From Strigamia acuminata (Eukaryota): 64,000 nucleotides of DNA. The position numbers were made by a program, and so were the translations under genes. Positions 19,958 through 55,010 of this stretch are shown piece by piece. The stretch spans positions 24,056,001 to 24,120,000 of the forward strand of contig OX442314.1 of the NCBI GenBank assembly GCA_949358305.1, read 5' to 3'. Numbering within the stretch: position 1 is the first letter of the stretch; each line of letters opens with the position of its first letter. Under the pieces are notes generated by a model. That model saw only the letters and a list, made by a program, of their open reading frames with translations, had not been told where the DNA came from and searched no databases.

Positions 19958-21547
19958 TGTGACGATTACCTTCTGGAGATAGCAATTGCTAAACTAAAGT
20001 GTGAACTATCTGTGTGAAAGTGTAAAATATGCAAACCTGATGTTTTCTCAAAACATATAACATTTATTCCGGTTTGAACCTTATATAAATACTATGCCTA
20101 CAAGTGGCTAAAATGACGAGAAGTTAAACTATACAGTTGTTTGGCAAAAGCCCTGAAATAATATCATTTGAAGGCTTCAGTCATGCAATAAGAATTTGTA
20201 ACGGTCTTATTGCTGTGACGTAAAAGATGTCATCTATGAATGGCTTTGGCTTCTAAATGGTCCGGGGTTTGGTTCTAAAAGGCGTGTAAATGGTTAGGCT
20301 GGGTGGGTTATATCCGAGAGGTGCGGTTGACTTTTCTGTATCGTCACACACATCGCATCGCAGATAATTGTTGTAATCAATAATTACCGCGAGATGTAAC
20401 AATGTGAGAATAAATATTCATATTAATTCTATGGAATTAATCATGATATTTTAGAGTCACAAACTTAACTAAAACTATGAAAATAAGTAAAATATATTAA
20501 AATAGCGCCGAGCTATTTTTTGCCCCGAGTGCAATCAACATCTAAGTTAGACTTAAATGTTCCGTCAAACCAATAACGAATTGAATCGAAATATCTCGCA
20601 GGAAAGGTTATCCATCGCCGGGAAATTACTCCACTCGGTCCTGGCTGGCGGGAGAGTAACCGGGAAATTACTCCGCGTCGATTACTCTGATAATGCGTCT
20701 GTGAAATATAAATACTCCACTCTAGATTCTACATTACCAATGCGTCTGTGAATTTTACTCCACTCTAGATTCTGCACTCTACAACGGAATGTTGGCATGA
20801 AGCTGGAGGGAGTGCGTCTGTGGGTTGTACCCCACTCTAGATACTACACTTAAATGTGTCTGTGAATTACTCACTCTAGTTACAACATTTCTACAACGGA
20901 ATGTTGGCATGAAGAGGCGGGCAGTGTGTCTGTGAGTCTTCTACCCACTCTAGATACTTACACTAAATACAAAGTATTTCTACAACGGATTGTCGGAACG
21001 CAGAGAAGTATAATATGTGCTCAAGTAATATCAGTATCAAACAAAAACAGAACAAGAGCGAGCTATATCCGTTTTGCAGGGGGATATATACTCGGTGAGG
21101 AGAATAGCTGTTCAGTGATCCAATGGGATCACTGGGCAGTCAAATCCATCCAATCCTAGGTCATAGGAAGTGGATACTCAGGACATAGTCTTCTACTAGG
21201 TCCAAAACAGGAACTGGATACGCAGGACACATTTTGGATTAAGTCCCTTTGACTATAATCCAAAAGGAGTCCAACTCACAGTGGGTGATGGGGGGTGACT
21301 TCACCAGGTGTAGAGTTTGCACATAATTCAATAGAATTATGTGACAAATAAATCAACTAGCATTTGAACATCCAAAAGTATTTAAAAGTGTCTAAAGTTG
21401 CAGTGGAATAAAATATAAATAGTAATTTATATTTTATTCACTCAAAAATTGTCGAAATTTGAATTTACCGCTAAAACGCATCAGCGCCATCTATTGGTGA
21501 AGTAATCGTCCTATACTAACAAAGTGCATGACAGTGTAACCGTCACA
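19958..21547 (-). repeat. Gypsy 3' LTR
   Basis: Direct repeat of 32360-33949 (offset 12,402); the small ORFs in both LTRs translate identically. Adjacent PPT (minus AAGGGGGACT) at 21548-21557. Confidence 0.97.
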
Positions 21548-22203
21548 AGTCCCCCTTAAATATATGTTAATACCTGTATTAACATACTATTTATTCCGAA
21601 TATCTTGAGGATCAAGACCACACTGTCATCTAGGGGACTCGAGCTGTAATCCTTGGTAAGCAAAAACCTTTATTTTATATCTTAATAGTATAAATAAAGA
21701 GTATTTCTTAATCAAATGCTTCAAAAAATATTTATTAAGGTTATAAAACTTTCAATTATCAATAATAGCTTCCATCTCTCTTTACAGGTGGACTTACAAC
21801 TGCATCAAGAAAAGGCGATAACTTAAACTAACATCAAACTCTTGTACCAAACAAATGATTAATAAAATTTAACAATTATTTTCACAAAACTTAACTTCTC
21901 ACTGGAAATATAATGATTTGCAAAATAACACTTTACACGTTAAAATTCAAGTATTAAAATTAGTATTCATTTAAACAAACTCACATTGACTCGTAATCAA
22001 ATTTTAACAAAATTGTTAATTTAAATATTAAAGATCTTTGAATTATTCACAAAAACGGCATAAAATACACCTGAACCTGACTAAATCTTTGTTTCAACTC
22101 GGGTCAAGAAATGGAGATGGAGAAAATGGACTCGTTACTTCTGGTCTTGCCTTAAAAGGGAAGATATCGGGAAAGTAACGGATCCCGACATCGTTGACGC
22201 TTT

Positions 22204-23847
22204 CTAGTCCAACTCTTCATCCTCAATAAATCCTTCCATGGATGTAACAACTTCCGAGACGGCTGCGGGTGGAGAATTAAGTTGAATAGCTACCAATTCC
22301 GGTACTACATCTGTCTCAACGTCATGGGCCAGGGGATTCAGGAGCATTCTGTGTTGTTCCTCGGTGAATACTTCCAGGGGATCAGGCCCTCCTAACGGAA
22401 TGGTGTTAGCGCTGGTTGGCTCGGAGAAAACCAAGTGATGGTCGGGTAAGCCGGAGTGCCATCCCTCACGAATCAACGGGTGTGCTGCTGCTGAGACCTG
22501 TTGCAAAATCTTACACCAAATAAAAGAGCGAGTTTGAAAAGATTCCGGCCGGGATGGATGGAAAATCCATTGGATCACGGCCAGTGGCACGCTCAAATCT
22601 GGAATTCGGTCGTTTGAAATCGACACACTAATACGCTTAGCTGCTTCCAATAAAATTGGGAAATAATGTTCCACTTCCGCCTTAGTTTGCTCCGTGAGCG
22701 ACATGTCTGGTCTCGGCATATATGGGTGGACCAGTAAAATAACCGGTTCAGCAGCGTGGCTTGCTTCTGGGAGCGGGATAGTCGCTACAATCATGTTGTT
22801 AGTCGACGTTCCCTCTGGAGAAGCGGCGGCTTGTGGACCAGAATCGGATGCAACCGGCGGAGAATCAGACGCAATAACTGACGTTGGAAGGTTTTCTGCC
22901 GAGGCAACTGGAGTTCCATCAATCGCAGGGGTGGGAGTTTCCGGCTCGCGTTGTGGCTCCGTAAATCCTCCTCGTGGAGTCGAGGTGCTGGACATTTGTG
23001 CCGGGTCTACATAAATAGCCTGCTCCGGGCCCTGGTGGATGAGGCCACATTCGCGACACATCGCCCAATTGCGTGCTGTCGGCGTACTTAGCCCCTTGAC
23101 GATAAATGGAAGAATTTCTTCATTCCACATGCTGGATATGGCAACGCGCTTACCACCGTGACAGTTCACGCAGACTACGGCGTGAATGCCGGATAACAAG
23201 GACGACAACCATCCGCATCCTGCGCACAATGGGCAGAACATCAGCTTCGACTTTGGCATGATGTTAGTCCCCAAGGCGGCAGCTTCCATATCTCGAAATA
23301 CGTGTTCTCTTCGCTGCTTCCGGTAACTTGGCAAATTTAGCTCCGATATCGAACGAGCTTGCGATGTTGGGCGGGTCAGCGCTTCGGATGAAGATGCCAA
23401 CGTGGACTTGGTGGGTCCTTTGGATTTGCCAGTCTTGCCTCGACTAGCGGTATCACGCGGATTTCGTGGTCGGGCAAACTGCCTGCTGGTAGCTGGAGGC
23501 GGAGCTTCTTCAACCGATTCTTCTTCTTGTGAGAAGTCATCTTGGCGCCGTCTCCTCGAGGCAGAACGGGAGTATTGTGACGAGTCGTCAGAAAAATCCC
23601 AATTCGGCGCATCATAGGTTACAACACGCTGACTAGCTTGACGGCCTCTGGAAGGACGCGAGTCGGTCGGGCTAACACCCATGGCGGTCCTAATTCGTGG
23701 CGGTACGAGATCCGGGTTATCACGGGCCCAGTTGGCGACGAGCTCGGGGTCAGAGGAGGGATTAACAAAGCGATAATCCGTCTCTTCCGATTCTTCTGGA
23801 TCCCAATGCACGTACTGTCGCTTGCTAGCACGACCTCGGCGACTCAT
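22204..23847 (-). CDS. Third ORF of the Gypsy element (547 aa), not Env; Arg/Ser-rich N-terminus and Cys/His cluster
   Basis: Intact long ORF between pol and the 3' LTR, same strand as gag-pol. No signal peptide or TM anchor seen. CPLCAGC...CVNCH...CRECGLIH. Pyrimidine tract and AG just upstream of the ATG. Confidence 0.8.
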   Translation of the reverse strand: MSRRGRASKRQYVHWDPEESEETDYRFVNPSSDPELVANWARDNPDLVPPRIRTAMGVSPTDSRPSRGRQASQRVVTYDAPNWDFSDDSSQYSRSASRRRRQDDFSQEEESVEEAPPPATSRQFARPRNPRDTASRGKTGKSKGPTKSTLASSSEALTRPTSQARSISELNLPSYRKQRREHVFRDMEAAALGTNIMPKSKLMFCPLCAGCGWLSSLLSGIHAVVCVNCHGGKRVAISSMWNEEILPFIVKGLSTPTARNWAMCRECGLIHQGPEQAIYVDPAQMSSTSTPRGGFTEPQREPETPTPAIDGTPVASAENLPTSVIASDSPPVASDSGPQAAASPEGTSTNNMIVATIPLPEASHAAEPVILLVHPYMPRPDMSLTEQTKAEVEHYFPILLEAAKRISVSISNDRIPDLSVPLAVIQWIFHPSRPESFQTRSFIWCKILQQVSAAAHPLIREGWHSGLPDHHLVFSEPTSANTIPLGGPDPLEVFTEEQHRMLLNPLAHDVETDVVPELVAIQLNSPPAAVSEVVTSMEGFIEDEELD

Positions 23848-25156
23848 TGCATCTTCAAGAAAATATAAATTTTATTTGAGAACATGAATCAACCGTCGGA
23901 AATTAATTTAATTTCAAATTAAATTAATTGTCGACCAACAACTGGATTAATTTCATAATTAATTCTTAAGTTCCCTTGTTAGCGTGTTTCCTCCATTTGT
24001 CGAATAATTATTAAGATTAATAATTATTCTCGACTTGGCATATAATTTCATTTTATCGTTTAACACAATATCGCTGATAAAATATTCAAATTAGTGTTTA
24101 TTTAATGAAATAAACCTAATTTTTGTATCTACACGACATAATAACTAAAAAACATATAAAAATATTTAAAAAAAAAATATTTTTGTAAGTGTTTTTTAGC
24201 ATCCGACAATAGTCATTTTACATGGTTTTAATTGTACGAATAATTCCACAATTCGTCCGAGTAAATAATTTACTACCGACATCTGGTGGCGTTTGCCCCT
24301 ATCATACACGTGACTTGTTAACCCATGTCTGCTCACCAATTTCCAAGGAACTTAAGAGATATTTTATCTTTCAAAAAATAAACACTTACTAACTAGGTGT
24401 AGTCCTAGAAGGGTATACTTGGCTAGTTTAATGTCTAGCTTCACGTATTTGCGAGGGCTGCTCGGTTCCGGCGATGTTGGCCGATAAAAACGTTGTGCGG
24501 CGCGTGCGAATTCTAAGTCCGCCGTAATGAACGCTTAACCAAAATAAATGTTGTCAATTAATGTCAAAATATTATAAATTTTGACAAAATATTGCTTAAA
24601 TATTTACCGGGAATTCACTTAGTGAGTTCGTGAAAGGCTTACTCGCGATTTTGTCCACGAGATGGTTTCGATAATCAGCGTCGTGTCGATAATTTCTGAA
24701 TTTGAACTGATATTTGTCAAATGAAAAAATCAGTAAAATAAACGATAAGTGTTCAAAATCATCTAGATTTTAACTCACTAAATTTCAGCGAAAATCCGTT
24801 AAAGCGTCGAAGGGTCGAGAATAATCCTTGATTTCAGTCCAGTACAAAACTTGGCGAACAAGTGAGTGATAATCTCAAACCAGGGGTTAAGGGGAGTTTC
24901 GAGGAGTAATTTGATTGGTTTGTAATTACTCATCTCGAAGTTTCTATTAACCCAAAGGGGGAAACACAGTTTCAAGTAAATGTTTACACGTAGATTAATT
25001 TGAATACAATCAGCTTGTGTAAAAAATAACTCAAACATTTGTTAAATTTTATCCACATCAAAAAAAAAATGTTTTTAATTAATAAAATTTAACAATTCTT
25101 CGTGAATATGATTGGAAATATTTATTTAAAATAAAATATTTTCAATATATTGTGTC

Positions 25157-28100
25157 CTAACCCAACTTGACTTGTTTTAGACAATTTACGAGTTGTACAA
25201 AATCGGTCACGTATTTTGTGTTCGGCTTGGGTCTACGTTTAGACTGTCGAACGGGAGATGGAAATCTTTTCCTCTTTTTGGATGAATTTTGAGGAGTTTC
25301 GTCCTCTTTAGAAGAAATCTGAGAAGTTTCCTCCTCTTTCTCTTCAACTAAATCCTCTGTTTCCATGGACACAGGTTCATTTATTAATTCTGAAGAATTA
25401 ATAACCTGACCTGCCATCCAATCTGGAGTCGGGTGTGATTCGTTGGTACCGACTTTCTGATCTAATGTCCATTCCTCAATCGGGTAACTTGGGATATAAG
25501 GCATTAAATCCTGTATGTTGATCGCTTTTGCTTTCGTGTTATCAGAAAGCTTACGTAGTGTGTAGGAACCTCCGCCGAGAACAGCCGTAATTTCCCAAGG
25601 TCCATCACGTTTCTCAGCGAATCCTGCCGAAATCCCTTTATCTTTATTTGATAAAATATGTGTGGCTTTCCACACGAGATCTCCTTTGGCAAATTGACAA
25701 ATATAATATTTGTCTTTATGTAGTCGATCATGCTTTTCGTAATTCGATTGAATTTTCCGATGCATTTCGCTGTGTGCACGTCTAATTACGTCTAAAATAC
25801 TATAGACATAAGCTTCGGGATTCTCTTTGTCGAATTTGATGGCGTGTTTAGTAATACGCGGGTCAAATGGCAAAGGGACGATTCTTCCCGTATTAAGAAT
25901 CATCGGTGAACAATTTGTTGCCTCGGACTTAGCGGTGCGCATCGCAAAGGCAAAAGAATTTAAGTATTTTGGCCAGTGGGAGTGAATGTCCGAGTATAAA
26001 GCTAACATCATTTTTAAAGTCCTGTTAGCCCGCTCTGTAATATTAGCGGCAGCGTGATATGGGCTAATGTGAGCAATATCTACGTGATTTTTTCGACAAA
26101 AATCATTAAATATTGTTGACACGAATTGTTTGCCGTTGTCGGAGATTATCTTTTTTGGATATCCCCAACGGTGGAAAACTTCGCTCATTTTATTAACGAT
26201 GCATTCACTTGATGCAGTCGCTAGTGGGAAGACTTCAATCCATTTTGTACAATTATCAATGATTACTAAAATCCATTTTAATTGTGAACGACCGGCTGGC
26301 TTTGGTCCCATCAGGTCAATGCTTATTGTCTCCCACGGGTTGGTCATGTTGTGGGGTGTATAGCTTGCCCGATGCTTTTGGTGTTGGCTAGGTTTGTATT
26401 GTTGGCAATGAGTGCAACTGCGAACGTAGTTTCGAGTGTCTTTGCTCATTCTAGGCCAGAAATACATCTGTTTTGCTCTATCTAGGGTTTTGCTCATGCC
26501 AGCGTGTCCTGTAAGTGGGTGGCCATGGCATGCGAATAATGCACGTCTCACGAGAGAGCGTGGAATTACCGCCTTAAACCCGTTGCCAGAGTCGTTTAAC
26601 TCTTCCTCATCGGTCGGAGCAAAATAAATTAGCATAACACCTTTATTTTCTTCCGGTTCGTCGAGAGTGTAGCCACGAATCGCGTTTAACCAATGTTTAT
26701 CCGTGACACGATTTTTTAATTTTTCGTCTCCTTTTAGGTAAACAAGGATTTTACTACATGCTGGATCTTTAAGCTGCGCTTCGATAATTTCGTCTCGCGT
26801 CGGCGGAACTACTTTTAGGATATCTGTTAGCGCAGTGTGTACATTTTCGTGATTACAATTGTGGACATCTATATGTCTGCAATTTTCTCTTGTACATCCT
26901 TCTTCCTCCCCCTTTTCTCCAGAATCATGAAATCTAACTGGATTATATGATTCTGAGAAAAAGTCTAAACTAAGGCCAACATTTGTAAGAAAATGTTTGC
27001 GCTCAGTTTCCGTCACTTGTAAAGATGCACACCTGTTTCCATTCCAAGTTGGATAGAAATGGGTGATCTCCTCTGGTTCGATATAATCATAATCCGGAGT
27101 GTCTAGTGCAGACAGTGGAGCGCGTGATAATGCGTCCGCTACTTGGTTCATTGCGCCGCGTCTAAAAATAATTTTAAACGCGCCACATTGTATTTTGACG
27201 GCCCAACGACCAAACCTTCCGGATGGTTCCGGCGTACTCATCAACCAGCTAAGGGCTTTAGCATCGGACTCGAGAGTGAAAGTCGTGTATTCTATATATG
27301 GGCGAAATCTTTCGATTGCCCATACAACGGCCAAACACTCCAATTCCGGCGTAGAATACCTTACTTCGGCCCCGTGCAACACTCGACTGGCGTACGCGAC
27401 TGCCTTTGGAACCATGATTAATTTCTGTTTCTTTTCACAGAATAACTCGACATCTTGGCAGAGTACTGCACCTAAGCCTGAATGAGAAGCATCTGTCAAA
27501 ATGACAAAAGGCTTATTCATATCTGGCATGTGGAGAAGGGCCTGGTCCTTGTCACACAAAATATCTTTGATAGTTTCGAATGCAGTTGTTTGTGGATCAT
27601 CCCACACAAACTTTGCTTGATCATGCATAATATTGGTCAATGGACGAGCAATATTTGCGATGTTAGGAATAAATTTTCGGAAAAAATTCGCAAGTCCTAC
27701 AAATCTTTGAATGTCTTTAGAGCAAGTCGGTTTGGGAAAATTCCTTACAGCCGAGACTTTGTCAGGGTCTGGAAGAAGAGATCCCTCCGAAATTAAATGG
27801 CCTAAAAATCGTAATGATGTTCGACCAAATTTTGACTTGTCTTTATTGATAGTTAGATTCGCGGCATCCAACTTCTCAAGTACGTCTTTAATATGTAATA
27901 AATGATTTTCCCATGTGTCGGAAAAAATAATTATATCGTCTAAATAGACCAGAGCATGTTTATATAAAGAGTCACCCAATACGGTAGTCATGAGGTGTTG
28001 AAAAGAACTAGGTGCATTACAAAGACCAAATGGCAATCTCTTGAATTGAAATTTGCCTTTTGGGGTGTAAAAAGCAGTTTTGCTCTTATCCTCCTCCTCC

Positions 28101-29443
28101 ATTTCCATTTGATGATAACCTTTAGTTAAATCAATGGATGTAAAGTACTTGGCCTGATTAGTATGGTGAATTAATAGGTCAATACTTGGCATTTGAATTG
28201 CATCAACTTCTGTGATCGCATTCAACCAGCGGTAGTCGATACATAATCGATACTTCCCGCCGGGTTTAGCCACTATGACGGGGTGACTTATATAAGGGCC
28301 AGTGGCAGGTTCGATCAACCCATCGGCCTCCAACTCCTCGACCAATTCCGTCATAATCGCCTTCTTGGCCGGATTGTACATTCTATATGGCTGGTGTTTC
28401 CAAGTAGCACCAGGTTTAAACTTGATGCTGTGCTTGGCCACCTTCGTACAGCCCAGTTGGTCTCGAAATACGTTTTTTAATTGTACAAGAACGTTTACGA
28501 GTAACTGTTTTTCTTCCGCCGAACTGTTGCAGCCTTCGACGAGTTTTTCTGCCCAGTCCGGTGAAGTGGGAGTTCCTTCACCTTGGAGACCCAAAGTCTT
28601 AATGCTTGCTAAGCAACAGTTAAGTTCAGTGGTCTCGTACGGGGCTGTCCATCCGGGCATGTCATCACAGGTGAACACTGCTCGTCGGGGATTAGGGTTT
28701 ATCCCCGTTCTACGCATAAAATTGTGACCCAAAATCAACCCACATACATTCTTGTGTAGAATTATGAAGGTCATAGGTGTAACTCTCCTTTTATCGGCCC
28801 ATTTGACACAAAGACAAACTTGACCGATAGGTCGGTGATCTATTCCGACCGCGCAGACACGCATTCCCCGGGGACATTCTTGTATGAATTCCACCGGAAT
28901 TTCCGTGTTTGAGAGGAGTTGTACTCCAATAAAACATTGGGTGGCTCCAGAGTCCATTAGTGCGTTGTAATCCAAACCTCCAATTTGGACATTCATACGC
29001 GGATCATCTTTGCCACCATTAATTAATTTGCTATTGCAAAGTTTGCCAAGCAATACTTTTCGTTCTTTCTTGTTCCATTTTTCAAGTTTAAGAAGTTTTC
29101 TTAACTTGAAAACCTTGGGTACAAGCGGTTTCTTGGGTGCATTCCAGCTTCCACTGAAAATACTCAAATTTTCTAGTTGGTCTGTCATGACTTTTAAATT
29201 TTCATCGACACCGCCACTAGAGCAGCTAGTCTTTCGACAGACAGGTACTGCTTCGTAAGAAATGACCAACGATGGTGGTTTATTCTTCGAATCATCGACA
29301 TAAGGTACTGTGAGATGACTAGGCTTATGTCTTAATTTAAATTCATCTTTTCGTAAAAATAAATCATTTGACAATTCCGAGAAAGGAAACAACTCTTTAA
29401 GCGGGGGTTGGGCAACTTGAACAACCCCCTGAATCAGTTTTTT
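25157..29443 (-). CDS. pol: Gypsy Pol (PR-RT-RNaseH-IN), reached by -1 frameshift
   Basis: LMDSGA protease, LPFGL and YLDD RT motifs, TDAS RNase H, HHCC zinc finger and IDLMGP/SDNG/ERAN DDE integrase. The frame stays open back to the slippery site at 29437-29443. Confidence 0.96.
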   Translation of the reverse strand, partial: KKLIQGVVQVAQPPLKELFPFSELSNDLFLRKDEFKLRHKPSHLTVPYVDDSKNKPPSLVISYEAVPVCRKTSCSSGGVDENLKVMTDQLENLSIFSGSWNAPKKPLVPKVFKLRKLLKLEKWNKKERKVLLGKLCNSKLINGGKDDPRMNVQIGGLDYNALMDSGATQCFIGVQLLSNTEIPVEFIQECPRGMRVCAVGIDHRPIGQVCLCVKWADKRRVTPMTFIILHKNVCGLILGHNFMRRTGINPNPRRAVFTCDDMPGWTAPYETTELNCCLASIKTLGLQGEGTPTSPDWAEKLVEGCNSSAEEKQLLVNVLVQLKNVFRDQLGCTKVAKHSIKFKPGATWKHQPYRMYNPAKKAIMTELVEELEADGLIEPATGPYISHPVIVAKPGGKYRLCIDYRWLNAITEVDAIQMPSIDLLIHHTNQAKYFTSIDLTKGYHQMEMEEEDKSKTAFYTPKGKFQFKRLPFGLCNAPSSFQHLMTTVLGDSLYKHALVYLDDIIIFSDTWENHLLHIKDVLEKLDAANLTINKDKSKFGRTSLRFLGHLISEGSLLPDPDKVSAVRNFPKPTCSKDIQRFVGLANFFRKFIPNIANIARPLTNIMHDQAKFVWDDPQTTAFETIKDILCDKDQALLHMPDMNKPFVILTDASHSGLGAVLCQDVELFCEKKQKLIMVPKAVAYASRVLHGAEVRYSTPELECLAVVWAIERFRPYIEYTTFTLESDAKALSWLMSTPEPSGRFGRWAVKIQCGAFKIIFRRGAMNQVADALSRAPLSALDTPDYDYIEPEEITHFYPTWNGNRCASLQVTETERKHFLTNVGLSLDFFSESYNPVRFHDSGEKGEEEGCTRENCRHIDVHNCNHENVHTALTDILKVVPPTRDEIIEAQLKDPACSKILVYLKGDEKLKNRVTDKHWLNAIRGYTLDEPEENKGVMLIYFAPTDEEELNDSGNGFKAVIPRSLVRRALFACHGHPLTGHAGMSKTLDRAKQMYFWPRMSKDTRNYVRSCTHCQQYKPSQHQKHRASYTPHNMTNPWETISIDLMGPKPAGRSQLKWILVIIDNCTKWIEVFPLATASSECIVNKMSEVFHRWGYPKKIISDNGKQFVSTIFNDFCRKNHVDIAHISPYHAAANITERANRTLKMMLALYSDIHSHWPKYLNSFAFAMRTAKSEATNCSPMILNTGRIVPLPFDPRITKHAIKFDKENPEAYVYSILDVIRRAHSEMHRKIQSNYEKHDRLHKDKYYICQFAKGDLVWKATHILSNKDKGISAGFAEKRDGPWEITAVLGGGSYTLRKLSDNTKAKAINIQDLMPYIPSYPIEEWTLDQKVGTNESHPTPDWMAGQVINSSELINEPVSMETEDLVEEKEEETSQISSKEDETPQNSSKKRKRFPSPVRQSKRRPKPNTKYVTDFVQLVNCLKQVKLG
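29403..29443 (-). promoter_or_regulatory. Programmed -1 ribosomal frameshift signal
   Basis: A AAA AAC heptamer immediately before the gag TGA, a 7-nt spacer, then an 8-bp stem GGGGGTTG/CAACCCCC with an 11-nt loop. Confidence 0.85.
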
Positions 29444-31482
29444 GTCTCGTCGGGAGTGACTGACTCAGTGGCTGCTGGTAAATGCTTAATTAACAGGTCA
29501 ACCATGTTTTTCTGGAAGTCAGTAAATTTGGAGTCTAAAGTTTCTGACGTAACCCAATTTTGTTTGGGTCGTTTAAACTCGGGGTTGGGAGCAGAGTGGT
29601 TAAATCTTTTATTTGAATTTAACGAGTCTGTTTTCCCTGCTAATTTTTTGGCAAGGGCGGGACATTCTCTTTTAAAATGTCCAGGCTCGTGACAGAAAAA
29701 GCATTTTCCAGTAGTCTTTTCATACTGGGCGGCAAATAATCGCTCCATTGAACCATCGTCAGTTGAGTCGTCATTTTCCGACTCGTCTTCATTTTCAACT
29801 TCATCTTGAGTTTGCGTTAAACGTAGTGAAGTTTTAGATGGAAAAATCTTAGATTTTTCGTGAAGTTTGGGAGTAGGATGATTCTCTCGATTATCGTACT
29901 CCAATTTTGCTGCAAGTTGAGAACTTTCAAACTTAGAGCGATTTGCTCCTACATATTGTAGAATGTCATCTACTGTAAAGTTACCATACATTCCTTGTGT
30001 ACATAACGCCGTGAAACTTTCTTGAGTTAAATTGTCGAATAATTGCGCACGTCCAGTTTTATCACCTGGCGGCACTTCACCTTGTTCTTGCGTATAACGC
30101 AGAAGAAAACTATAAAGTGACTCGTCGGCTCGTTGTTTTACATTAAGAAGTCGCCTTTCTCTTGTAAGTGGAACGAGGTCGAAACAATCGAGAAAAGAGG
30201 CTTCGAAAGTTCGCCAACTGTTAAAAGTATGGCGTTGCTTATGGAACCAACGTTGTGCATGGCCTAATAGTCGTCCAGGTACAGCAGTGTGTACCATGTC
30301 GTCTAAAGGGATGCCTTTCCCGAGTGCGACAGCTTTGACGATTTCAAGGAATCGCGCAACCTCTGTCTGTTTCCCGTCAAAAATAGGAATCTCGATTCCT
30401 TTTCCAAAATTCTGACTGGGATTACTCGGGCTTCGGATTTGACCAACTAAACCCTGAATAATTTGTTTTACATTTTCGTCCGACAAATTAGAAGCAGAGT
30501 TCGAATTGGGTGTAGACCGACTTTCTTGGTCTCTGGGTGGCGGATTTGGCTCTCCTCGAAAATTTTGGCGTCTATCAGGTGGCGGAGGAGAACGAGAATT
30601 ATTACGTCGGTGGAAATTATTGTTATAATTTCCCCCTCCACCAGCGTGAGATTCGTCACTACTCGAGTTAGGATCGGAGTCACGAGGATCACCAGGAGCT
30701 CCGGGAAATCGTTGATTTCTCGGCGGAGCTCGTCCACCTTGAGAGCGGGAATTTCTATAATTCCTAAAATCTCCATCAGATTGGGTGTGAGATTGAAAAT
30801 TTTGATAATTTTCATTTCTCCCCCTTGGTTGGACCGACAGATTAGTTCGAGGCTGTGGAACTCTGAAAGAATCATTCAAATTCCCAGTGGGAGCGGGTAA
30901 AATATTATTTACAGCCGTCGCACTTGGTAAATTTCGGGAAATTGGCGCCGAAATATTTCCTTGTCCGGAATTTCCCATTCTTTCGGCCGAATTCGATCGC
31001 CAAGAACTAGTTGGTAACTGAATCGAAGGTTGAACAGATAGTGAAGAATTTAACTGCCCATTGTCGTCACGAGCAACATTCATTCGCCATCCAGGCAATT
31101 GCTGGTAGCGATATGTGGCCGGCGAACGAGGGCCAGTTCGATCTACAGAAACACTTCGTTCGTTGGTTACAACTACATCGGGAGTAATTACACGATTTCT
31201 CTCGTGATGATTATTCGCCGTGTATTGTTGAGCTTCACACAAAGAGGAAAACTGCGTCACTTCCAATTGGTAATGGCGACAGTAAACTTCTAAATCATGT
31301 GGGACTGATAGTGGATCCGTTCGAGAACTACCTGGGTTGGAAACGTCTCTAGGAACATTCTCTTCCCCCTGGCTTTCTAGATCAGACTCCACAATTCCTC
31401 TTGGTGTTTCACACATACCACCACGTCGTCGTGCTCCACGATTTCCTCGTGTTCCACGAACTCTTACAGGTCTACGGGCCAT
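29434..31482 (-). CDS. gag: Gypsy Gag
   Basis: First ATG at 31482 (MARRPVR). Retrotransposon capsid-like region (IPIFDGK...LLGHAQRWF) and CCHC knuckle CFFCHEPGHFKREC. Confidence 0.92.
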   Translation of the reverse strand: MARRPVRVRGTRGNRGARRRGGMCETPRGIVESDLESQGEENVPRDVSNPGSSRTDPLSVPHDLEVYCRHYQLEVTQFSSLCEAQQYTANNHHERNRVITPDVVVTNERSVSVDRTGPRSPATYRYQQLPGWRMNVARDDNGQLNSSLSVQPSIQLPTSSWRSNSAERMGNSGQGNISAPISRNLPSATAVNNILPAPTGNLNDSFRVPQPRTNLSVQPRGRNENYQNFQSHTQSDGDFRNYRNSRSQGGRAPPRNQRFPGAPGDPRDSDPNSSSDESHAGGGGNYNNNFHRRNNSRSPPPPDRRQNFRGEPNPPPRDQESRSTPNSNSASNLSDENVKQIIQGLVGQIRSPSNPSQNFGKGIEIPIFDGKQTEVARFLEIVKAVALGKGIPLDDMVHTAVPGRLLGHAQRWFHKQRHTFNSWRTFEASFLDCFDLVPLTRERRLLNVKQRADESLYSFLLRYTQEQGEVPPGDKTGRAQLFDNLTQESFTALCTQGMYGNFTVDDILQYVGANRSKFESSQLAAKLEYDNRENHPTPKLHEKSKIFPSKTSLRLTQTQDEVENEDESENDDSTDDGSMERLFAAQYEKTTGKCFFCHEPGHFKRECPALAKKLAGKTDSLNSNKRFNHSAPNPEFKRPKQNWVTSETLDSKFTDFQKNMVDLLIKHLPAATESVTPDETKN

Positions 31483-32340
31483 AATACTCAAAGAAATACA
31501 CGTACAAAAGAAAAAATAAACTTTAACTGAACTAGCGTAAATGTAACACGCTTAATATTAAACTAAGAAATAATTTGAAAAAATACAACCTTAGCTGCTG
31601 AAACTGAAGTGGCTTCGGAAAAACTGTCCTATTGCGTGGTCAAGAATGGTCCAAACGGGCACTGGTCACAAAGGCACAACTGGATGGTCGCACTGTCGAA
31701 AAGCAAGTGTGGCTGAATATTGGTTGTCAAACTAGCTTCCGGAAAATCTCCTTTGTCAAGACAGTCTGCTGTGATTGGCGATGTTGACAAATTCCTGATA
31801 ATTTCTAATCCGAAATTCTCAACAATGTCACATCTGGATGACCTACTCCGAGCTGCATCGTGAGTGGTTCTCTTTGTCACATTCTTTACTTTGTTAAAGA
31901 TTAAAATAATAATCAAAAACATTGAAAACAGAACAATAGAAACTTGGTCAAGTTTTTAACCAGCAAAATAAAATACTTTAACTTTTTATTTTTCAGTCAG
32001 CAGGATTTCTAGTCAAATTCGTTTTTTGATCAAAATTCAAGGTTTCGAAATTTTCCAGAATATAGCTGAATATTCTGGGAAACTCAATAAAATCATAATA
32101 GATTTTTCGTAAGAGATTCGGAATTATAATGAGTTTTTTTCAAAATAATCCAAAAATTCGAATTCAGATATTTCCAAAAGATAATGAGAATTTTTTGAAA
32201 ACAAATGGATATTTCACAGTAAATTTATAGAGAAAAATCGGAAATTTTCTAATTATAATATCTATATAAAATAATCAAGAAAATTCATTTTTTCAATTTA
32301 CACTTTGATCACAGAGTTCACTTCGATAAAATGCAACCTA

Positions 32341-32357
32341 TCTCGGTAGAACCTCCA
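32341..32357 (-). promoter_or_regulatory. Primer binding site complementary to the tRNA-Gln 3' end
   Basis: Minus TGGAGGTTCTACCGAGA, 2 nt inside the 5' LTR; complementary to ...TCTCGGTAGAACCT-CCA, recognised from memory as the animal tRNA-Gln 3' end. Confidence 0.8.
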
Positions 32358-32359
32358 CG

Positions 32360-33949
32360 TGTGACGATTACCTTCTGGAGATAGCAATTGCTAAACTAAA
32401 GTGTGAACTATCTGTGTGAAAGTGTAAAATATGCAAACCTGATGTTTTCTCAAAACATATAACATTTATTCCGGTTTGAACCTTATATAAATACTATGCC
32501 TACAAGTGGCTAAAATGACGAGAAGTTAAACTATACAGTTGTTTGGCAAAAGCCCTGAAATAATATCATTTGAAGGCTTCAGTCATGCAATAAGAATTTG
32601 TAACGGTCTTATTGCTGTGACGTAAAAGATGTCATCTATGAATGGCTTTGGCTTCTAAATGGTCCGGGGTTTGGTTCTAAAAGGCGTGTAAATGGTTAGG
32701 CTGGGTGGGTTATATCCGAGAGGTGCGGTTGACTTTTCTGTATCGTCACACACATCGCATCGCAGATAATTGTTGTAATCAATAATTACCGCGAGATGTA
32801 ACAATGTGAGAATAAATATTCATATTAATTCTATGGAATTAATCATGATATTTTAGAGTCACAAACTTAACTAAAACTATGAAAATAAGTAAAATATATT
32901 AAAATAGCGCCGAGCTATTTTTTGCCCCGAGTGCAATCAACATCTAAGTTAGACTTAAATGTTCCGTCAAACCAATAACGAATTGAATCGAAATATCTCG
33001 CAGGAAAGGTTATCCATCGCCGGGAAATTACTCCACTCGGTCCTGGCTGGCGGGAGAGTAACCGGGAAATTACTCCGCGTCGATTACTCTGATAATGCGT
33101 CTGTGAAATATAAATACTCCACTCTAGATTCTACATTACCAATGCGTCTGTGAATTTTACTCCACTCTAGATTCTGCACTCTACAACGGAATGTTGGCAT
33201 GAAGCTGGAGGGAGTGCGTCTGTGGGTTGTACCCCACTCTAGATACTACACTTAAATGTGTCTGTGAATTACTCACTCTAGTTACAACATTTCTACAACG
33301 GAATGTTGGCATGAAGAGGCGGGCAGTGTGTCTGTGAGTCTTCTACCCACTCTAGATACTTACACTAAATACAAAGTATTTCTACAACGGATTGTCGGAA
33401 CGCAGAGAAGTATAATATGTGCTCAAGTAATATCAGTATCAAACAAAAACAGAACAAGAGCGAGCTATATCCGTTTTGCAGGGGGATATATACTCGGTGA
33501 GGAGAATAGCTGTTCAGTGATCCAATGGGATCACTGGGCAGTCAAATCCATCCAATCCTAGGTCATAGGAAGTGGATACTCAGGACATAGTCTTCTACTA
33601 GGTCCAAAACAGGAACTGGATACGCAGGACACATTTTGGATTAAGTCCCTTTGACTATAATCCAAAAGGAGTCCAACTCACAGTGGGTGATGGGGGGTGA
33701 CTTCACCAGGTGTAGAGTTTGCACATAATTCAATAGAATTATGTGACAAATAAATCAACTAGCATTTGAACATCCAAAAGTATTTAAAAGTGTCTAAAGT
33801 TGCAGTGGAATAAAATATAAATAGTAATTTATATTTTATTCACTCAAAAATTGTCGAAATTTGAATTTACCGCTAAAACGCATCAGCGCCATCTATTGGT
33901 GAAGTAATCGTCCTATACTAACAAAGTGCATGACAGTGTAACCGTCACA
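32360..33949 (-). repeat. Gypsy 5' LTR
   Basis: Direct repeat of 19958-21547, followed on the minus strand by the PBS. Confidence 0.97.
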
Positions 33950-34991
33950 AGCAGCTTACTCCGCCCGTTGGCCTGTCGGCTCATGTTCAGCACAGGGAGG
34001 AAATATGTTCTATTTTGTAAATTCCCGTCAAGAGATGGCGCTGGTTTCCATTTCCTACCTAGCAGCAACCTTATTTCAGGCTAATTCACTTTCAGTTTCT
34101 CACCTTCGCTACGAAGAGCAGATATTTTATTGCCGTGATAAAAACCGCACATTTATTATTTGCGATTCATGGTCGTCAGTTAAGCCGCCAGGGATTCATT
34201 ACACACTTCGTATCACTTAATATAATGTCATCATCCTATATGATAATAATTAAATCCGATTCCTAATTAGAGTAATTTCGTTCAACATTAATGTATGCAC
34301 AAATTAATATTAAAACTGAATTTTTCATATGGAAAATTCCGTTTTAATATTTCAGCCCTTATTTTTTTTTTATTTAAAAAAAAAACTGCATTTAATGTAA
34401 TTAAATGCAAAGCTGATAAGGAATTTGACTAGTATTATCATGTGTCAATGTACTGATCGACATTGCATGAATAGAAGTGAGAGTTTAACCCTAGGATCAA
34501 TTTTGACCTGCTAAAATTTTTTTTTTCCTTTCTAAAACGAACGGAGTTTACTTTCTAAAAATTGTTTGGCCCAGAATTTTCTCCCAACTCTTCTTTAGAA
34601 AAATGGTTAAAGAAAAATTAAAAAAGAATTAAAAAAGAATCAAAAATAAAAAAGTCATTCAAAAAACAAAACATTCGTGGCTTTTGGCCCACTCTGTATA
34701 ACGTATAAACATCATAACAAACAATTAAAAAAATAATAGATCCAAAAATTAAAAATCTTTTTTTCAAAAATTTCTTTGTTGAAAACCAGAACATGCGGAA
34801 AATGTATTTCCAACAATGATTTTTTATAGCATATATTTTTTTAAACTGAAGTCAAATCAATGAGTTTGCATCTCACGTCTGCCTTTCTTTCAATCCAAAG
34901 ATCACAACTTAAATTTGGTCAAGGACACTACAAGCTTTGTTAAACTCATTTCGAAATTTCATACCCATTACATATTATCACATAATCTATA

Positions 34992-35247: not shown

Positions 35248-35790
35248 TACATCATAGCCATCAGGTATTTTTTTGTTTAAAACATTAAATAACAACTTCT
35301 ACATAGTTCATAGTTTTACAGTGACGAATGTGGAAATTTCATTGTTTATGGTAAATAAAAACTAAACAAATTTTCATGGGGTTGCGAGAAAATATTTTGA
35401 GAAGCGAAGGAGTCCGGACTCAAGAAAGGTTAAGAACCACTAAGTGTTTCATTTTGATATCGAATATTTAAAAAAAAAAAAAAATAAACAAAGATAAACT
35501 GAACTTGAAAATTCAACATGCAGCTCAAATCGTAATACCAAAAAAAGAAACTTTTCAGTTAAGATTGCAAATTTGTTTTTGTCTTTTGGTGTCAAGTTTA
35601 TGATAACATAAAAAGAACCGTATTTCCATTCCTCGTTTTGTTGTGAACATGTGCACGGTTTGTGACAACGTTCCAAAGGTTAAACCAGAGTACAATGTAT
35701 ACGAAGGCTTAAATTCAGAATCAATTTTCAAAAACAAGTTCAATACTCATACTCATTTTTCTCTCTGAAATATCTGCAGTTCGTCCTATT

Positions 35791-38588
35791 ATGGATTTCT
35801 CGGTAAGTAGATATTTAAAAAATATACATTTACAGCTATCTGAAAGTTGAATAGTAATTGTTCTCGTAAAGACTAAGTTCTGTGTGATTGAGTACATTCA
35901 CCATGCAATTAAAGCAATAGATACACATAATCTGCACTTTCAAAAGACAATCAATTCCTTATCGGAATTCCAAGCATGTTTATTGGCGGCAGTGCGTTCA
36001 ATTTTGATTAGTATTCCTTAAACTAAACAGAACCTCTCAAGCGAAGTTTTAAAAAAATTAAATTAAGTCGCTTAATATTGACGAGATTAATTGAATTTCC
36101 TGGACAAGTTAACTAACGATTTAACTAAAATGACGAAATAGCAAATCTACAGTGTGCGCCTGTTATCTTGATGCCAAATTCCAACCGTGCATTCCACTAT
36201 GTGCACACCATCATTATTCTCTATTTTTACAGTTCGTGGCCGTTATCTTGATGCCCAATTCATTCTGAGCAGATGATTTCCTAATTCCAGTAGTTATTTA
36301 GCAGTATTAAGCCCAATGTTCGGCCTAATAATGCTAACAAAGTTAATAAACAACAATAAACTAATTAACAAAAGTAAATTACAGCACCAAACCAAAATGT
36401 TGTTGCTTTATTTCCTTTGTGTGCAGCAAACAATCGTGTAAATACTCATACAGGCGCAGTACAGTAGAGCGTTGATTATCCGAACTGATCGGGGACATGG
36501 GTGTTCATAAAACCGATTTCTTCACATAATAAGTCATTAGCTTTATGCAGATACCGCATTGAATACGAAAAAAAAAAACATCCGACAAAAAAACGACTAA
36601 AATCAACTAAAAAGTCGATAGAAAGTCGATCACCGCTGTTCAATTAACCGGTCGTTCGCATGACCGATGTTCGGATAATCGACGCTCTACAGTATGTGAT
36701 GCGCAGTTTGAATTTGGCGATAGAACGGTAGATGATGTGAAATAATGTCAGTAGGTGCATTCAAAAACTCTAAAACGCCTCTAAAACTCGTTTCGTGTTT
36801 GTACGTGACGTCATTCCCATTGAATAACATGAGAATGTTATTCAATGGGAATGATCTCATTGAATAACATGAGAATGTTATTCAATGGGAATGATCCCAT
36901 TGAATAACATGAGAATGTTATTCAATGGGAATGATCCCATTGAATAACATGAGAATGTTATTCAATGGGAATGACGTCACGTACAAACACGAAACGAGTT
37001 TTGCATACGTTTTAGAGTTTTTGAATGCAGCTACTGATTGATCCCCTCCACCTGGCTATTAAATGGGTCCTTAGTATATATATCTACATCTATATATAAC
37101 TAAAGCAAGTCACTTAAGATGTCAAAAACCTGATATCAATGAGACTAGTCGACTAAGCTGTTATCTGATAATGTGATATCTCTAAATGAAACTGAACTTT
37201 TAACGCTACTGTTGAAAATACTCACTCTAAAATAATCTTATTTATTCAATTTTCAGCTCAAGCTGAGAAGAAACACTTTGCTGACTTTCAACGTGGCGCT
37301 ATTGTTTTGTTTCACATTCCTAAACCCACATTCACATTTATCCATTGCAACTACGTCCAAACATAATCATCGCATCGAAGTACATTCAGAAATCGGAAGA
37401 CTCAGGAAAGTTTTGCTCCACAGACCTGGTGATGAACTTGAAAACTTGACTCCAGAACTATTGAAGAAGTTACTATTTGATGACATACCCTACTTGAAAT
37501 TAGCAAGAGAGGAACATGATGTATTTGTCCAAATACTTCAAGACAAAGGTGTTGAAGTTGTATACATTGAAAACCTAGTCTCAGAAGCAATTAGCACTTT
37601 AGTTCAAACGAAAATGAAGTTCATCAACCAATTCATCGATGAATGCGGCATCAAATCCGAAAAAGGCAAGAAAATTCTCACAGACTACTTTCTAAATTTC
37701 CCAACCAAACAAATGGTGGATAAAATGATAGCTGGAGTCAAAAAGAATGAACTTCAAGAACAACTGCCGTCTCTCAATTTCTTGGTTGACAGTGACTATC
37801 CCTTTATTTGTGATCCAATACCCAACCTCTTATTCACAAGAGACCCATTCTCAAGCATAGGCAATGGAGTATCCATAAACCACATGAGCACTGCTACAAG
37901 AAGACGAGAAACCATTTTTGCCGAATATGTCTTCAAACATCATCCAGACTACAACAATGGCCAAGTCCCCATCTGGTATGAGAGAACAGAGCACAGCAAC
38001 ATCGAAGGAGGAGATATTCTGGTATTAAGCGAAGAATTACTGGCCATTGGTATTTCCGAGAGGACTGATAGTGAGGCGATTGAAAAAATTGCCAAATCCC
38101 TCTTCCAAAAGCACCCGACTTTCCAGACAATATTGGCTTTTGATATTCCCAACAGTCGATCGTACATGCATCTCGATACAGTTTTCACACAGATTGACTA
38201 CGACAAGTTTACCATTCACCAGAGCCCGGATATGACGTTCACATGTTATTCGCTCAAGAAGAGTGAATGTGCTGACTGTGCAATGAAAATACAACCGGAA
38301 ACTGGAAGTGTGGAAGAAATTTTGGAACGACATTTGAACAGACAAGTGAAATTAATCGAATGTGGAGGTGGTGATCCAGTCAATGGGGAGAGGGAACAGT
38401 GGAGTGATGGTGCAAATACATTAGCTATAGCCCCTGGAGAAGTTATTGTGTACAATAGAAATTACCAGACCAATAATGCTCTCAGAGAAAATGGAATCAT
38501 TGTTCATGAAATTCCATCCAGTGAACTCTCAAGAGGGCGCGGAGGGCCCAGGTGCATGTCTATGCCTTTAATAAGAGACAATTTGTAA
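35791..38588 (+). CDS. arcA: Bacterial-type arginine deiminase with signal peptide, copy 1 (2 exons, about 447 aa)
   Basis: Exon 1 35791-35802 ATG GAT TTC TCG|GTAAGT; intron to ttttcag|37257; exon 2 is in phase 0 ([22 protein letters not shown]...). ADI motifs [42 protein letters not shown] and [16 protein letters not shown] (catalytic Cys) are all intact. Confidence 0.92.
36462..36692. mobile_element. MITE in the ADI intron (CAGTAGAG TIR, TA TSD)
   Basis: ta|cagtagagcgttgattatccgaac ... gttcggataatcgacgctctacag|ta. Confidence 0.75.
36748..37037. mobile_element. Palindromic MITE with 4 tandem 40-bp self-complementary units, in the ADI intron
   Basis: TIR tcagtag(g/c)tgcattcaaaaactctaaaacg; unit cattgaataacatgagaatgttattcaatgggaatgatcc repeated at 36818-36973. 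Confidence 0.8.
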
Positions 38589-38733
38589 ACATAAGAGAAA
38601 AATTTATATTCAATCAAATATATAATTATTCCTTGTATCATGTTTTAAATTCTCCTTTTAATGAAAAATGAAAAAATTAAGAAAAAAACTCGAAGTGTAT
38701 TTAATGAGTAAATATTGACAGGAAAAAGTCTAA

Positions 38734-51638: not shown

Positions 51639-54600
51639 TTAACACAACACCGTGGTCAATCCTTCCAAAGTAAGTACTCTCCTGCACAAAATCTTTTTAA
51701 GACACACCTTGACGGGGCGGACCATCCTCTCCCACAATAAGCCCCACCACAGTGCACATCCCACAATAAACTTCCCTACGACACGATGTTTCATGAGAAC
51801 GACCACAACGACATTGACAAGAATAAACAGTGTCGTCAACACAAACACCACAAAGTACAGAGGCGTGAGGATTGTGGACACACAACAATTTTGAACGCAG
51901 TCCGGTGATGGATCACACTCATCTCTCAATGCGTCCTTCATTATAACACTCCAATTGTCTCCAATGACTACACGAAACAAAGTGAGAAATGCCATTCCAA
52001 AATTAGCAAAATGAGCATGTCCTCCTAAACCTTCACATGGATGAAATTCATCGCATTCTATTAAATAGAGAGCAGTAGTAAATTAAAATGTCAATACTTT
52101 ATTTTTATAAAATAAAAATTACCTATTGTTCCAAACAGTTCCACTCCTAATGCAGCAAATATAAAAATCAATAAATAGAAGAGGAGGCCCAGATTTACAA
52201 CCTGTGGTAATGCATGCATAACAGTGTCCAGGAATGCTCTGATGTCCTTGGCCATTTTGAGTGACTTAAGAACTGAAATTGAGAGTTTTACATTACATTT
52301 TTTAATAATAACTTAAAGCTGGCATAATATGAATAAAAAATTATACAATTTCCAATCCCAAATGCATGAGCACATAATAGAGTTACCGGTAATTAAACAG
52401 TCTGGTGAGGTACAGTACTTACACTTCACCAGAGGTTATGGAGGTTCTTTAAATTTTTTAATGAAGAAAAACATACGGTGTTGTTTCGTTTCGAGTTTTT
52501 TATCTCCTTTCTCTGCTCTTCTGGCCTTTTCTTCGTTCTCTTGTTCTTCATGACATCGATGGAAGTTTTCAAAGACTGCACCAACAAACATGCTTAAAAC
52601 GAAAAATCCCACAAGCAGTAGGAAAGAGATGAAATACAGCAGACGCCATTCGCTGTAATTCTCTATCGGCTGAAATATACACAAAATAATAAATATCAAA
52701 ATTAAATTAACCAAACACTTTTAATAAATAAATTCCCACCTGTTGGTCTACTCCAACAGCGTCCAATCCATGAGGTATAATATCGACCCAACCGTCTTTA
52801 GAAGACATCACGAAAAGCGCCATCAACGCCTAAATAAAATATAACAAAAAAAAATCATTATTTTATTTTGACTTTACTTTTGTATTTTTTCTTTTATTAT
52901 TTACCACTTACCAGTCCTAAATCATCAAAATTGTATCGTCTATTTAACCACTCGTTTCGTGGATCGGCTTCGCAATCGGTTCGATTTTTAATTCCCTTCA
53001 TCTCAGGACCTTGGCAGTAATAAAAAGTTCCTTTAAACAGCTAAATTAAAGAGATTTCATTAAAATTATTAAAATTGCAAAATATAAGTACTGTAAATAA
53101 ATAAATAAATGAATAAATGAATGACAAAAAAAACTTTTTTTATACATGAACTCCAAGAATTCCAAAAATGATGAGAAAAGTACCACAGATGAGAACATTG
53201 TTACGAATGCGTAGGAGGGAGGACAGAACAGTTTGCACAGCTAATTTCAGACCAGGTGCACGGTTTATTACCCTTGAATAAAAAATAAAACAAAAAAAAA
53301 TAATATCAATACAAATAAACAGTAATAACTTGGGTGAAATGTTCTGTAAAGAGCTACTGTAAAGAAGTTGATGTTATTAGTTGCATTCAAAAATAGATAA
53401 CATTCAGTTATTCCTCTTTATTTTCTCGACAAATGACGAGCAAAACAGAAAACAAAAGCCGTTCTATAGTTTTCGCCCGGCCAGCACCAAATTTGCGCGA
53501 CCCAAATTTGCGCCGTCTTTATTTTGGCTCAAATTTGCGCCGGCCCAAATTTGCGCGATTCAAATTTGCGCCGACCCAAATTTGCGCCGGTCCAAATTTG
53601 CGCCGGTCCAAATTTGCGCAACATACGTTACGACTGACCACCAGGGCGCGCATTGGGATACCCTCAACCCCCTTTGCGGGGTTTCTTCATTTCGTCGCCC
53701 TTCATTTAGTTGCCCTTTATTTAATTTCCGACCAACACTCAATGGAAGGAGAATTGCTTAAAAAAAAGTGGTAAGGTTAGGTTCGCGGGGGGTCAAGGGG
53801 GGGCGCTAACCCCCCCTTGTTAAGCATTCTTAGGAATACGAGAGGCGGACTCAGCCTAACAGCGGCGGCGACGAAATGTTCTGCGCATGCGTCGCGCTAA
53901 TTTGACCACGCGCAAATTTGGGTCGGCGCAAATTTGAGTCGGCGCAAATCGCGCAAATTTGGTTTGCGCAAATTTGGGTCGGCGCAAATTTGAATCGCGC
54001 AAATACGGGTCGCGCAAATTTGATTTGCGCTAATCTGAACCCTGCCCACCAGGCGCAAAGGGCAGGGTTACTAAATCCGGATACTAAATCCGTACTGCGC
54101 ATCCCATTCTGCGCATTTGTTATTTAGCAGTATTAAGTTTAATCCATCCATATATTTGGATATAAATCATAAAATAAACGTTTGTTATTGCATGAACATC
54201 TGCATTGAAATTAAATGCGTACCTGAGGGGTCGAAGAGACCGGAGAAGTCGAAAAACTCGAAGAATATCAAAAATATATGAACTAGAAGTGGAAAAGAAA
54301 TTTATGATGATGTCGACAAGTGAAATAATAACTAATGTGCCATCCATAACATTCCAGCCACTGCAAAAATAAGCATGTCTTCCATACCACAGTCCGAAAC
54401 CGACTACCTGTAATAACAACACGAAATTGTTTAGATAAAATGGTTACCGCAATAATTTTTTTTTCTTTTACACTTACCTTGACCAACATTTCCAATGCAA
54501 AAACAGCAGTGAAGATGTAGTTGGTGATTGTTAAAAACTGTCGTTCATGGCTGCTAGGCGGTATATTGGGTCGTTCCATGGCCAGAGTGACACAATTAAA

Positions 54601-54670
54601 ACCGATAAAGGCTATAATACCGTAATCAAACCACTTTTGTTCTATTAAATTAGCGCACATTTTTCGAAAT
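51639..54670 (-). pseudogene. Ca-alpha1T: Partial T-type voltage-gated Ca channel alpha-1 (Cav3) duplicate: domain III and domain IV S5-P-S6
   Basis: Exons 54670-54478, 54407-54223, 53272-53146, 53040-52912, 52829-52740, 52669-52477, 52272-52123, 52057-51639. S4 LRVFRLLRSLRPLR; pore motifs SKDGW (III) and GDNW (IV), the Asp/Asp pattern of T-type channels. Domain IV S1-S4 and the normal C-terminus are absent, and many conserved residues are substituted. Confidence 0.8.
53480..54040. repeat. Intronic foldback/MITE with inverted arrays of aaatttgcgc
   Basis: caaatttgcgccg repeats at about 53488-53620, mirrored by gcgcaaatttg repeats at about 53910-54030. Confidence 0.7.
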
Positions 54671-54809
54671 CTGTAAACAATAGTTAAATAATAACCATCT
54701 ATCTATCTTAATGCGCACTTTCTTTGCAATATAAAATAATAAACCTCATTTGCAATTTCATTAACCTTAATGGTTAAAAGACACAATACGCCCAATGTGT
54801 TGACTGTTG

Positions 54810-55010
54810 ACTAAAGGAAGTCATTCCAGATAACTGGTATCAAAAACGTGATAGCCAAGTCGACAAAGTTGTTATCTTATCTGATATCTCTAAAATAAAA
54901 TTGAACATTTAAAGCTGATATAAAAAGTTACTGTTGAAAATACTTTCTCTAAAATAATTTTATTTATTCAATTTTAAGCTCATTCATAGTATTGAAGTAA
55001 ATTCAGAATC
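54810..55010 (+). pseudogene. Remnant of the ADI intron end, acceptor and exon-2 start (remnant copy 4)
   Basis: Matches 37098-37260 (actaaag.aagtca..., ctgttgaaaatact..ctctaaaataat.ttatttattcaatttt.ag|ctca), then jumps to attgaagta.attcagaa (IEV.SE), with the signal peptide deleted. A shorter match lies at 49292-49314 plus 49950-50030. Confidence 0.7.

Follow-up and report, generated by a model that had tools for sequence, protein, structure and literature searches.

A survey published in 2016 detected no arginine deiminase (ADI) in Metazoa, Fungi or land plants, within a limited sampling, and the same paper describes Giardia and Trichomonas as secreting ADI, with depletion of host arginine and nitric oxide (PMC5052871). 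The genes presented here resemble these protist ones in encoding a eukaryotic ADI, secreted in the protists and predicted to be secreted in our case, but the protist enzymes are mostly members of a full energy pathway (PMC5052871).

Centipedes are known to have acquired another bacterial arginine-deiminating enzyme, centiPAD, a peptidylarginine deiminase of the Porphyromonas type that came from Gammaproteobacteria or Bacteroidetes and occurs in scutigeromorphs and Lithobius; other transferred centipede venom families map to intron-bearing genes in Strigamia maritima (PMC7864903, PMC4379518). CentiPAD is listed among the centipede venom transfers, and the available portion of the supplements names peptidyl-arginine deiminase only and does not contain the word 'Borrelia' (PMC7864903). 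Eleven myriapod transfers described elsewhere, restricted to those found in three species, do not include ADI as far as the accessible text goes (PMC9151784). ADI was not found in the text of PMC4244043, the supplements of PMC5490193 or the text of PMC13389597, and the accessible parts of PMC4358723 and of a preprint (10.64898/2026.02.11.705288) use the term in other senses or for something absent. Overall, no report of an animal ADI was found in the literature searched, which was mostly open-access, the tables of a metazoan HGT compendium being outside its coverage.

A third relevant system is that of the HESP salivary proteins of true bugs, transferred bacterial genes that share with the present ones a route of transfer, duplication, intron gain and secretion; intron- and signal-peptide-bearing transferred genes are therein already known from arthropods (PMC10908841). 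Our genes differ from HESP in belonging to another family, in encoding a normally cytosolic enzyme, in having the start codon on a four-codon exon and in having a possible leaderless relic nearby. The gain of an intron and a signal peptide after transfer is a known route; what seems to be new is that an animal has this enzyme, which donor it came from and that it is predicted to be secreted.

We analysed a window of 64,000 nucleotides from the centipede Strigamia acuminata (contig OX442314.1; positions below are those of the window), whose main features are collected in Table 1. In the reading that we favour, and that we hold to be probable, the chromosome carries two tandem, intact, bacterial-type ADI genes that originated from a relative of Borrelia, are spliced, and are secreted by means of a 35-residue signal peptide. 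The gene is a real one of bacterial type, and we consider it likely to be domesticated.

Table 1. Features of the ADI locus and its surroundings, by position in the window
Feature	Positions	Strand	Remarks
Na/Ca exchanger (NCX) gene, nine exon matches	62-8960	-	runs off the left end of the window
Copy 1 coding micro-exon, ATG plus three codons	35791..35802	+	followed by a phase-0 donor; in a 38-nt island common with copy 2; splicing predicted
Copy 1 predicted GT-AG intron, 1454 nt, phase 0	35803..37256	+	
MITE-like element, inverted arms of 26 nt, TA at either end	36460..36694		in copy 1 intron
MITE-like element, arms of 143 nt enclosing an internal repeat of 40 nt	36748..37037		in copy 1 intron
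Copy 1 leader, residues 5-35, predicted signal peptide	37257..37349	+	hand rules on sequence
Copy 1 ADI domain, residues 44-447 and stop codon	37374..38588	+	PF02274, TIGR01078, fold
Copy 2 coding micro-exon, identical donor, a single change relative to copy 1	39977..39988	+	motif comparison
Copy 2 predicted intron, 2057 nt, mostly repeats	39989..42045	+	final 46 nt as in copy 1
Copy 2 exon 2, leader and ADI	42046..43383	+	93% amino-acid identity to copy 1
Broken ADI fragment in two pieces, internally deleted	43859..44096	+	
Relic comprising the 3' end of the intron, the acceptor region and codons 41-49 of ADI, without the 105-nt leader	54810..55008	+	abuts a Cav3-like exon on the other strand

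Both copies matched the ADI profiles PF02274 (400 and 404 bits; E 1e-119 for copy 1) and TIGR01078, an equivalog model (542.7 and 547.5 bits, cut-off 489.1). D200, H309, D311 and C437, present in both copies, align with the motifs that hold Pseudomonas D166, H278, D280 and C406, the catalytic residues mutated in PDB entries 2aci, 2aaf, 2abr and 2a9g. A structure model had a pLDDT of 81.9, and its best fold match was 4bof (E 1.5e-49, TM 0.93 by target). The centipede ADI is predicted to convert free arginine to citrulline and ammonia. An identity with centiPAD was rejected, Pfam and NCBIfam giving only ADI and a weak DDAH match; in contrast to centiPAD, the Strigamia protein belongs to PF02274/TIGR01078, has free arginine as its predicted substrate and has no demonstrated link to venom.

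The 120 best of 7999 scored ADI matches were 56–62% identical to the centipede protein; those carrying a name were from Clostridia and Borrelia, and none was named as an animal protein, though many had no name. The centipede pair was sister to Borreliaceae in all three trees that we built: FastTree on 136 rows (support 1.0), IQ-TREE under LG+G4 on 46 rows (100/99) and LG+C20 on 26 rows (99/99), the two smaller sets being hand-picked from the 136 rows, which were themselves drawn from the best matches and included no protist ADIs. At the shared node the stems are fairly long on both sides (0.31–0.41), and the alignment with Borreliaceae has letters in common also outside the catalytic motifs. 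Matches on plasmids reached at most 55% identity among the best 25 of 422. In these trees the gene is nested among bacteria, and the donor would likely be either a Borrelia relative or a lineage that also donated arcA to Borreliaceae. In the 46-row tree, an ADI from a genome labelled Actinobacillus sp. (MAG) grouped with Clostridium perfringens (95/61), reflecting either a transfer between bacteria or a binning error.

Compared with Borreliaceae ArcA (Borrelia, Borreliella), to which they are similar in identity, fold and catalytic residues, the centipede genes have a 35-residue leader, an upstream micro-exon, three extra cysteines and a tandem arrangement in animal DNA. They also differ in lacking nearby pathway partners: no OTC, carbamate kinase or antiporter was recognised among the 47 frames of at least 100 aa in the 64-kb window, all of which were read by eye and 14 scanned by Pfam.

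A first-pass annotation of this DNA had proposed that a short ATG exon followed by GTAAGT is joined in phase 0 to an acceptor at 37256/37257, and that the frame of the long exon is open upstream of its TTG as far as that acceptor. Both points were right: the ATG lies at 35791, the donor at 35803 and the acceptor AG at 37255-37256, and joining the exons in silico gives 447 codons with zero internal stops and a stop at 38588; the stop-to-stop frame of the long exon opens at 37236, with the first in-frame TTG at 37278 and the first ATG only at 37614. Between 30000 and 37257, the 35803 donor is the only one of ten GT[AG]AG donors with an in-frame ATG upstream. Seven AG sites occur in 37236-37400, but just two of them, 37256 and 37262, are compatible with the phase-0 donor, implying that the leader would be translated. 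The acceptor, an AT-rich polypyrimidine tract followed by CAG, is similar to those of the neighbouring NCX gene. Taken as sequence features, the consensus donor, the acceptor, the frame-preserving phase and the conservation all agree with a U2-type GT-AG intron, and we infer splicing at 35802/37257 and, in the second copy, at 39988/42046.

The two ADI copies are 94% identical in DNA over 37211-38733. The micro-exon of copy 2, like the affinity with Borreliaceae and the leaderless relic, had escaped the first-pass annotation. Upstream, the resemblance shrinks to an island, 35783-35820 in copy 1 versus 39969-40006 in copy 2, with 33 of 38 nucleotides identical; it contains the four-codon ATG and GTAAGT motif, at 39977-39994 in copy 2. 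This was the best 38-mer match between the upstream regions, the corresponding values being 24–27 in 30 shuffles and 25–30 in 10 natural control regions. The flanks of the island do not align between copies, even though they are partly low-depth, apparently unique sequence. Such an island, kept amid non-alignable flanks, would be the expected outcome of selection on a start codon and a donor during intron turnover. A search with the motif pattern returned two matches; as the pattern was derived from both copies, this is not a fully independent test.

Independently of the island, exon 2 itself requires a start further upstream, because it has no ATG before residue 124 and yet the preceding codons stay conserved. 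A start at residue 124 would lose conserved N-terminal motifs, and codons 44-123 show 7 synonymous and 6 replacement codon differences between copies. For the ADI core as a whole, dN/dS between copies is 0.28 (26 synonymous and 28 replacement differences; Fisher p 1e-5), meaning that the core is under purifying selection. A gene with one long coding exon spliced to a four-codon first exon is thus the likely structure of both copies, at the level of sequence.

The first-pass annotation had also described the leader as a signal peptide that bacterial ArcA lacks. Its residues 1-11 are net basic and residues 12-26 hydrophobic and uncharged (Kyte-Doolittle mean over these 15 residues, 2.25 and 2.14 in the two copies), followed by Pro28. 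Residues 33 and 35 are small, and beyond the h-region the two copies have a single (-3,-1) site in common, which falls after residue 35. None of the 120 best homologues exceeded 1.18 over 12 residues within the first 40, so the absence of such a leader from bacterial ArcA held among them, and their SEIG motif starts 7–31 residues from the N-terminus, versus residue 47 here. Among the 150 best 50%-cluster representatives (identity at most 57%), one passed a hydrophobicity of 1.8, at 1.81, and none had a comparable leader. When residues 1-90 were compared with short proteins, 75 matches were found among 120 candidates, none covering more than 61% and hence none including the leader. An Atlas search returned only bacterial ADI clusters for the full protein, with scores of 0.75–0.76 for the leader.

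To judge how often such a leader arises, we collected 1782 YAG sites outside excluded genes, which gave 224 open 36-codon frames; this set retained most NCX and Cav3 exons, and its thresholds were taken from the query leader. Equal hydrophobicity was seen in 35 of the 224 frames (16%), meaning that AT-rich DNA readily yields hydrophobic frames, but a basic n-region and an uncharged core were also present in just two. By hand rules, the three features looked for in a signal peptide (basic n-region, h-region, small -3/-1 residues) are all present in the leader, although it is long and the thresholds are query-derived, so that the signal peptide is a predicted one. Typical signal peptides are shorter than this one, which has 35 residues and a c-region of 9.

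The n-region of copy 2 is weaker (R8 to G), copy 1 has gained zero glycosylation sequons relative to bacteria, and the leader has a pLDDT below 50 in the structure model. Between copies, the leader carries 3 synonymous and 4 replacement substitutions, giving a dN/dS of 0.41 that, on 7 changes, is not significant. C334, C342 and C345 are shared by the two copies and were seen in none of the 34 homologues aligned; the model places residues 342 and 345 in a hairpin loop, and these gains are compatible with disulfides.

The main competitor to a cleaved signal peptide is a spliced host gene whose leader does something else, serving as a type II anchor (making ADI an ecto-enzyme), as an organelle-targeting peptide, or merely persisting as tolerated, exonised intron DNA on an intracellular enzyme. 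Basic residues ahead of a hydrophobic stretch would suit an N-in anchor, and the long c-region, a dN/dS indistinguishable from neutral, the frequency of equally hydrophobic frames and the lack of any database relative found for the leader all point the same way. Against this, the full basic and uncharged pattern is rare in the null frames, the 19-residue hydrophobicity mean (1.2–1.3) is low for a transmembrane helix, and the copies have in common both a small-residue cleavage site and the three gained cysteines. We regard this alternative as unlikely. The leader looks like a cleavable signal peptide, with predicted ER entry and cleavage after residue 35, and if the gene model is right cleavable secretion is reasonably probable. 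The signal-peptide claim thus stands as a likely one, borne by the n-region and h-region pattern, while selection on the leader is not significant.

The intron contains repeats, and parts of it recur elsewhere. Both of its MITE-like elements fall in bins whose depth is hundreds of times the unique level. The 36748-37037 element shares its ends with sequences at 836-963, 13849-13998, 16274-16421 and 17552-17624, the first of which sits between NCX exons 274-678 and 1192-1389 and has the terminal ~20 nt in common. That the intron holds two MITEs, one from a family also present in an NCX intron, as had been proposed, is hence correct at the level of terminal repeats, and for the ends only.

The relic beside the Cav3-like exon can be aligned (72% identity) with the intron of copy 1 from 37099 up to and including the acceptor. 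Exactly 105 nt, comprising the entire leader and linker, are then skipped in frame before the match takes up again over 27 nt within codons 41-49; the skipped stretch is bordered by a short imperfect direct repeat. The relic may be a leaderless earlier state, preceding insertion of the leader, or the product of a microhomology deletion in a dead copy. We clearly favour deletion, because the other relic, the broken ADI fragment, also carries one. This segment of the intron is also found at 49291-49314 and 49946-50031, next to a Cav3-like exon that is duplicated, indicating that local duplications tie the ADI intron to DNA adjoining the Cav3-like fragments, whichever of the two gave rise to the other. 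The copy 2 intron showed no significant likeness to the segment common to copy 1 and the relics.

A more elaborate history can be built on the leaderless state: this would be the first animal ADI, its arcA coming from an unsampled Borrelia-like spirochete, with a first step in which micro-exon and intron gave an N-terminus of bacterial length, as in the relic, and a later in-frame insertion of 105 nt that became the signal peptide and led to secretion. We put this forward as a tentative scheme, unlikely in its entirety. The earlier suggestion that the locus records how the gene was eukaryotised is fair as far as the outcome goes, though the events leading to it may have come in more than one order.

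Less probable still is that the host genes are real and begin differently, with extra upstream coding exons or a non-AUG start in exon 2. In copy 1, a pyrimidine tract plus CAG resembling an acceptor occupies 35757-35781, 11 nt before the ATG (further upstream exons, such as a 5' untranslated one, are therefore possible in this copy); before copy 2, 4 of 9 GT[AG]AG donors have an in-frame ATG, i.e., there are three other phase-0 candidates; and exon 2 of copy 1 has an in-frame CTG at 37263 as well as the TTG at 37278. However, the island with the 39977 motif is the sole stretch conserved between the two upstream regions, the upstream AG is differently placed in copy 2, and an additional 5' untranslated exon would leave the protein unchanged. 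We consider a different first coding exon improbable and retain the four-codon exon.

As for the genomic setting, NCX, Cav3-like exons, LTR elements and MITEs lie in the same window as ADI, in the assembly and in short contigs. The nine NCX matches are 72–97% identical to the Strigamia maritima protein, the other matches listed for the first exon reaching at most 80%, which on this one gene agrees with a likely centipede host. In one sequencing run, the depth over copy 1 (77–90) equalled that of unique host contigs (77–90); in a second it was uneven (227–505), and such depth is not a copy number. Both runs, which come from one study, are possibly the window's own source and hence are not independent, behave as DNA, with the intron covered and no 35802-37257 joint among the joints listed (15 of 85). 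Exact peptide patterns found no ADI relative in 185,579 species genomes or in metagenomes.

Contamination is very unlikely, as the first-pass annotation had maintained, because the splice-type motifs are conserved in two copies, the intron holds host repeats, the core is under purifying selection, no bacterial match among the best 120 exceeds 62% identity, no operon partner lies among the long frames, no close relative was found in the genomes and metagenomes searched, and the depth in the first run equals that of unique host contigs. That the bacterial DNA was inserted recently and is silent, or that the assembly is chimeric, with splice-like motifs present by chance, might be suspected from the long exon without introns and from the fact that none of the contigs listed bridges the copy 1 intron to exon 2, but this is a far-fetched reading given these same observations, the conserved donor island and the host repeats and flanks common to both copies.

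The surroundings contain several other elements. An intact Ty3/gypsy-type LTR retrotransposon occupies 19958-33951, with two 1592-nt LTRs 100% identical, gag at 29434-31551, pol at 25157-29464 and, on the same strand, an extra frame of 555 aa (22204-23871) without a Pfam match; its insertion, 1.8 kb upstream of the ADI micro-exon, is very recent. An intact Ty1/copia element (57552-62574; 209-nt LTRs 99.5% identical, a single 1406-aa frame) lies inside or beside an element with inverted ends at 56194-56486 and 57130-57422. On the minus strand, 51642-54702 holds diverged exons for domains III-IV of what we take to be a Cav3-like (T-type) calcium channel, Pfam giving Ion_trans only; exons are apparently missing, this is likely a partial pseudogene, and part of one exon is duplicated with its flank at 48245-48455. 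Among frames without a Pfam match, one of 309 aa (18437-19366, plus strand) contains Gly-Leu-Pro repeats along with a patch rich in His, stops some 600 nt short of the gypsy LTR, is accompanied by a His-rich frame at 16421-16675 and may represent one exon of a structural or glue protein that is secreted; two others, of 179 and 186 aa (47168-47707 and 50180-50740, plus strand), lie between the ADI copies and the Cav3-like exons.

If the favoured reading is correct, a host promoter would transcribe the ADI gene, removal of one intron would join the four-codon exon to the long coding exon, and the signal peptide would direct ADI into the ER, where the leader would be cleaved after residue 35; outside the cell, the secreted enzyme would then hydrolyse free arginine, yielding citrulline and ammonia. 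Energy production is an unlikely purpose, given the secretory leader and the lack of a pathway partner seen nearby. By analogy with the ADI secreted by Giardia and Trichomonas, our guess is that arginine depletion in a secretion, whether antimicrobial, digestive or directed against the nitric-oxide defence of prey, is the likeliest use.

Irrespective of the exact use, a working, secreted animal ADI would, if real, represent a new arthropod means of controlling extracellular arginine, from which nitric oxide is synthesised and which many microbes use as a substrate. It would also mean that centipedes, having acquired centiPAD, independently recruited arginine-deiminating chemistry a second time. 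Arginine-depletion biotechnology relies on bacterial enzymes, and animal ADIs would be of interest there too. At this locus one can test directly how an enzyme that is cytosolic in bacteria comes to have a start exon and a signal peptide. Finally, the tree points to a Borrelia-related bacterium that was once intimate with an arthropod other than a tick, which bears on the origin of Borreliaceae.
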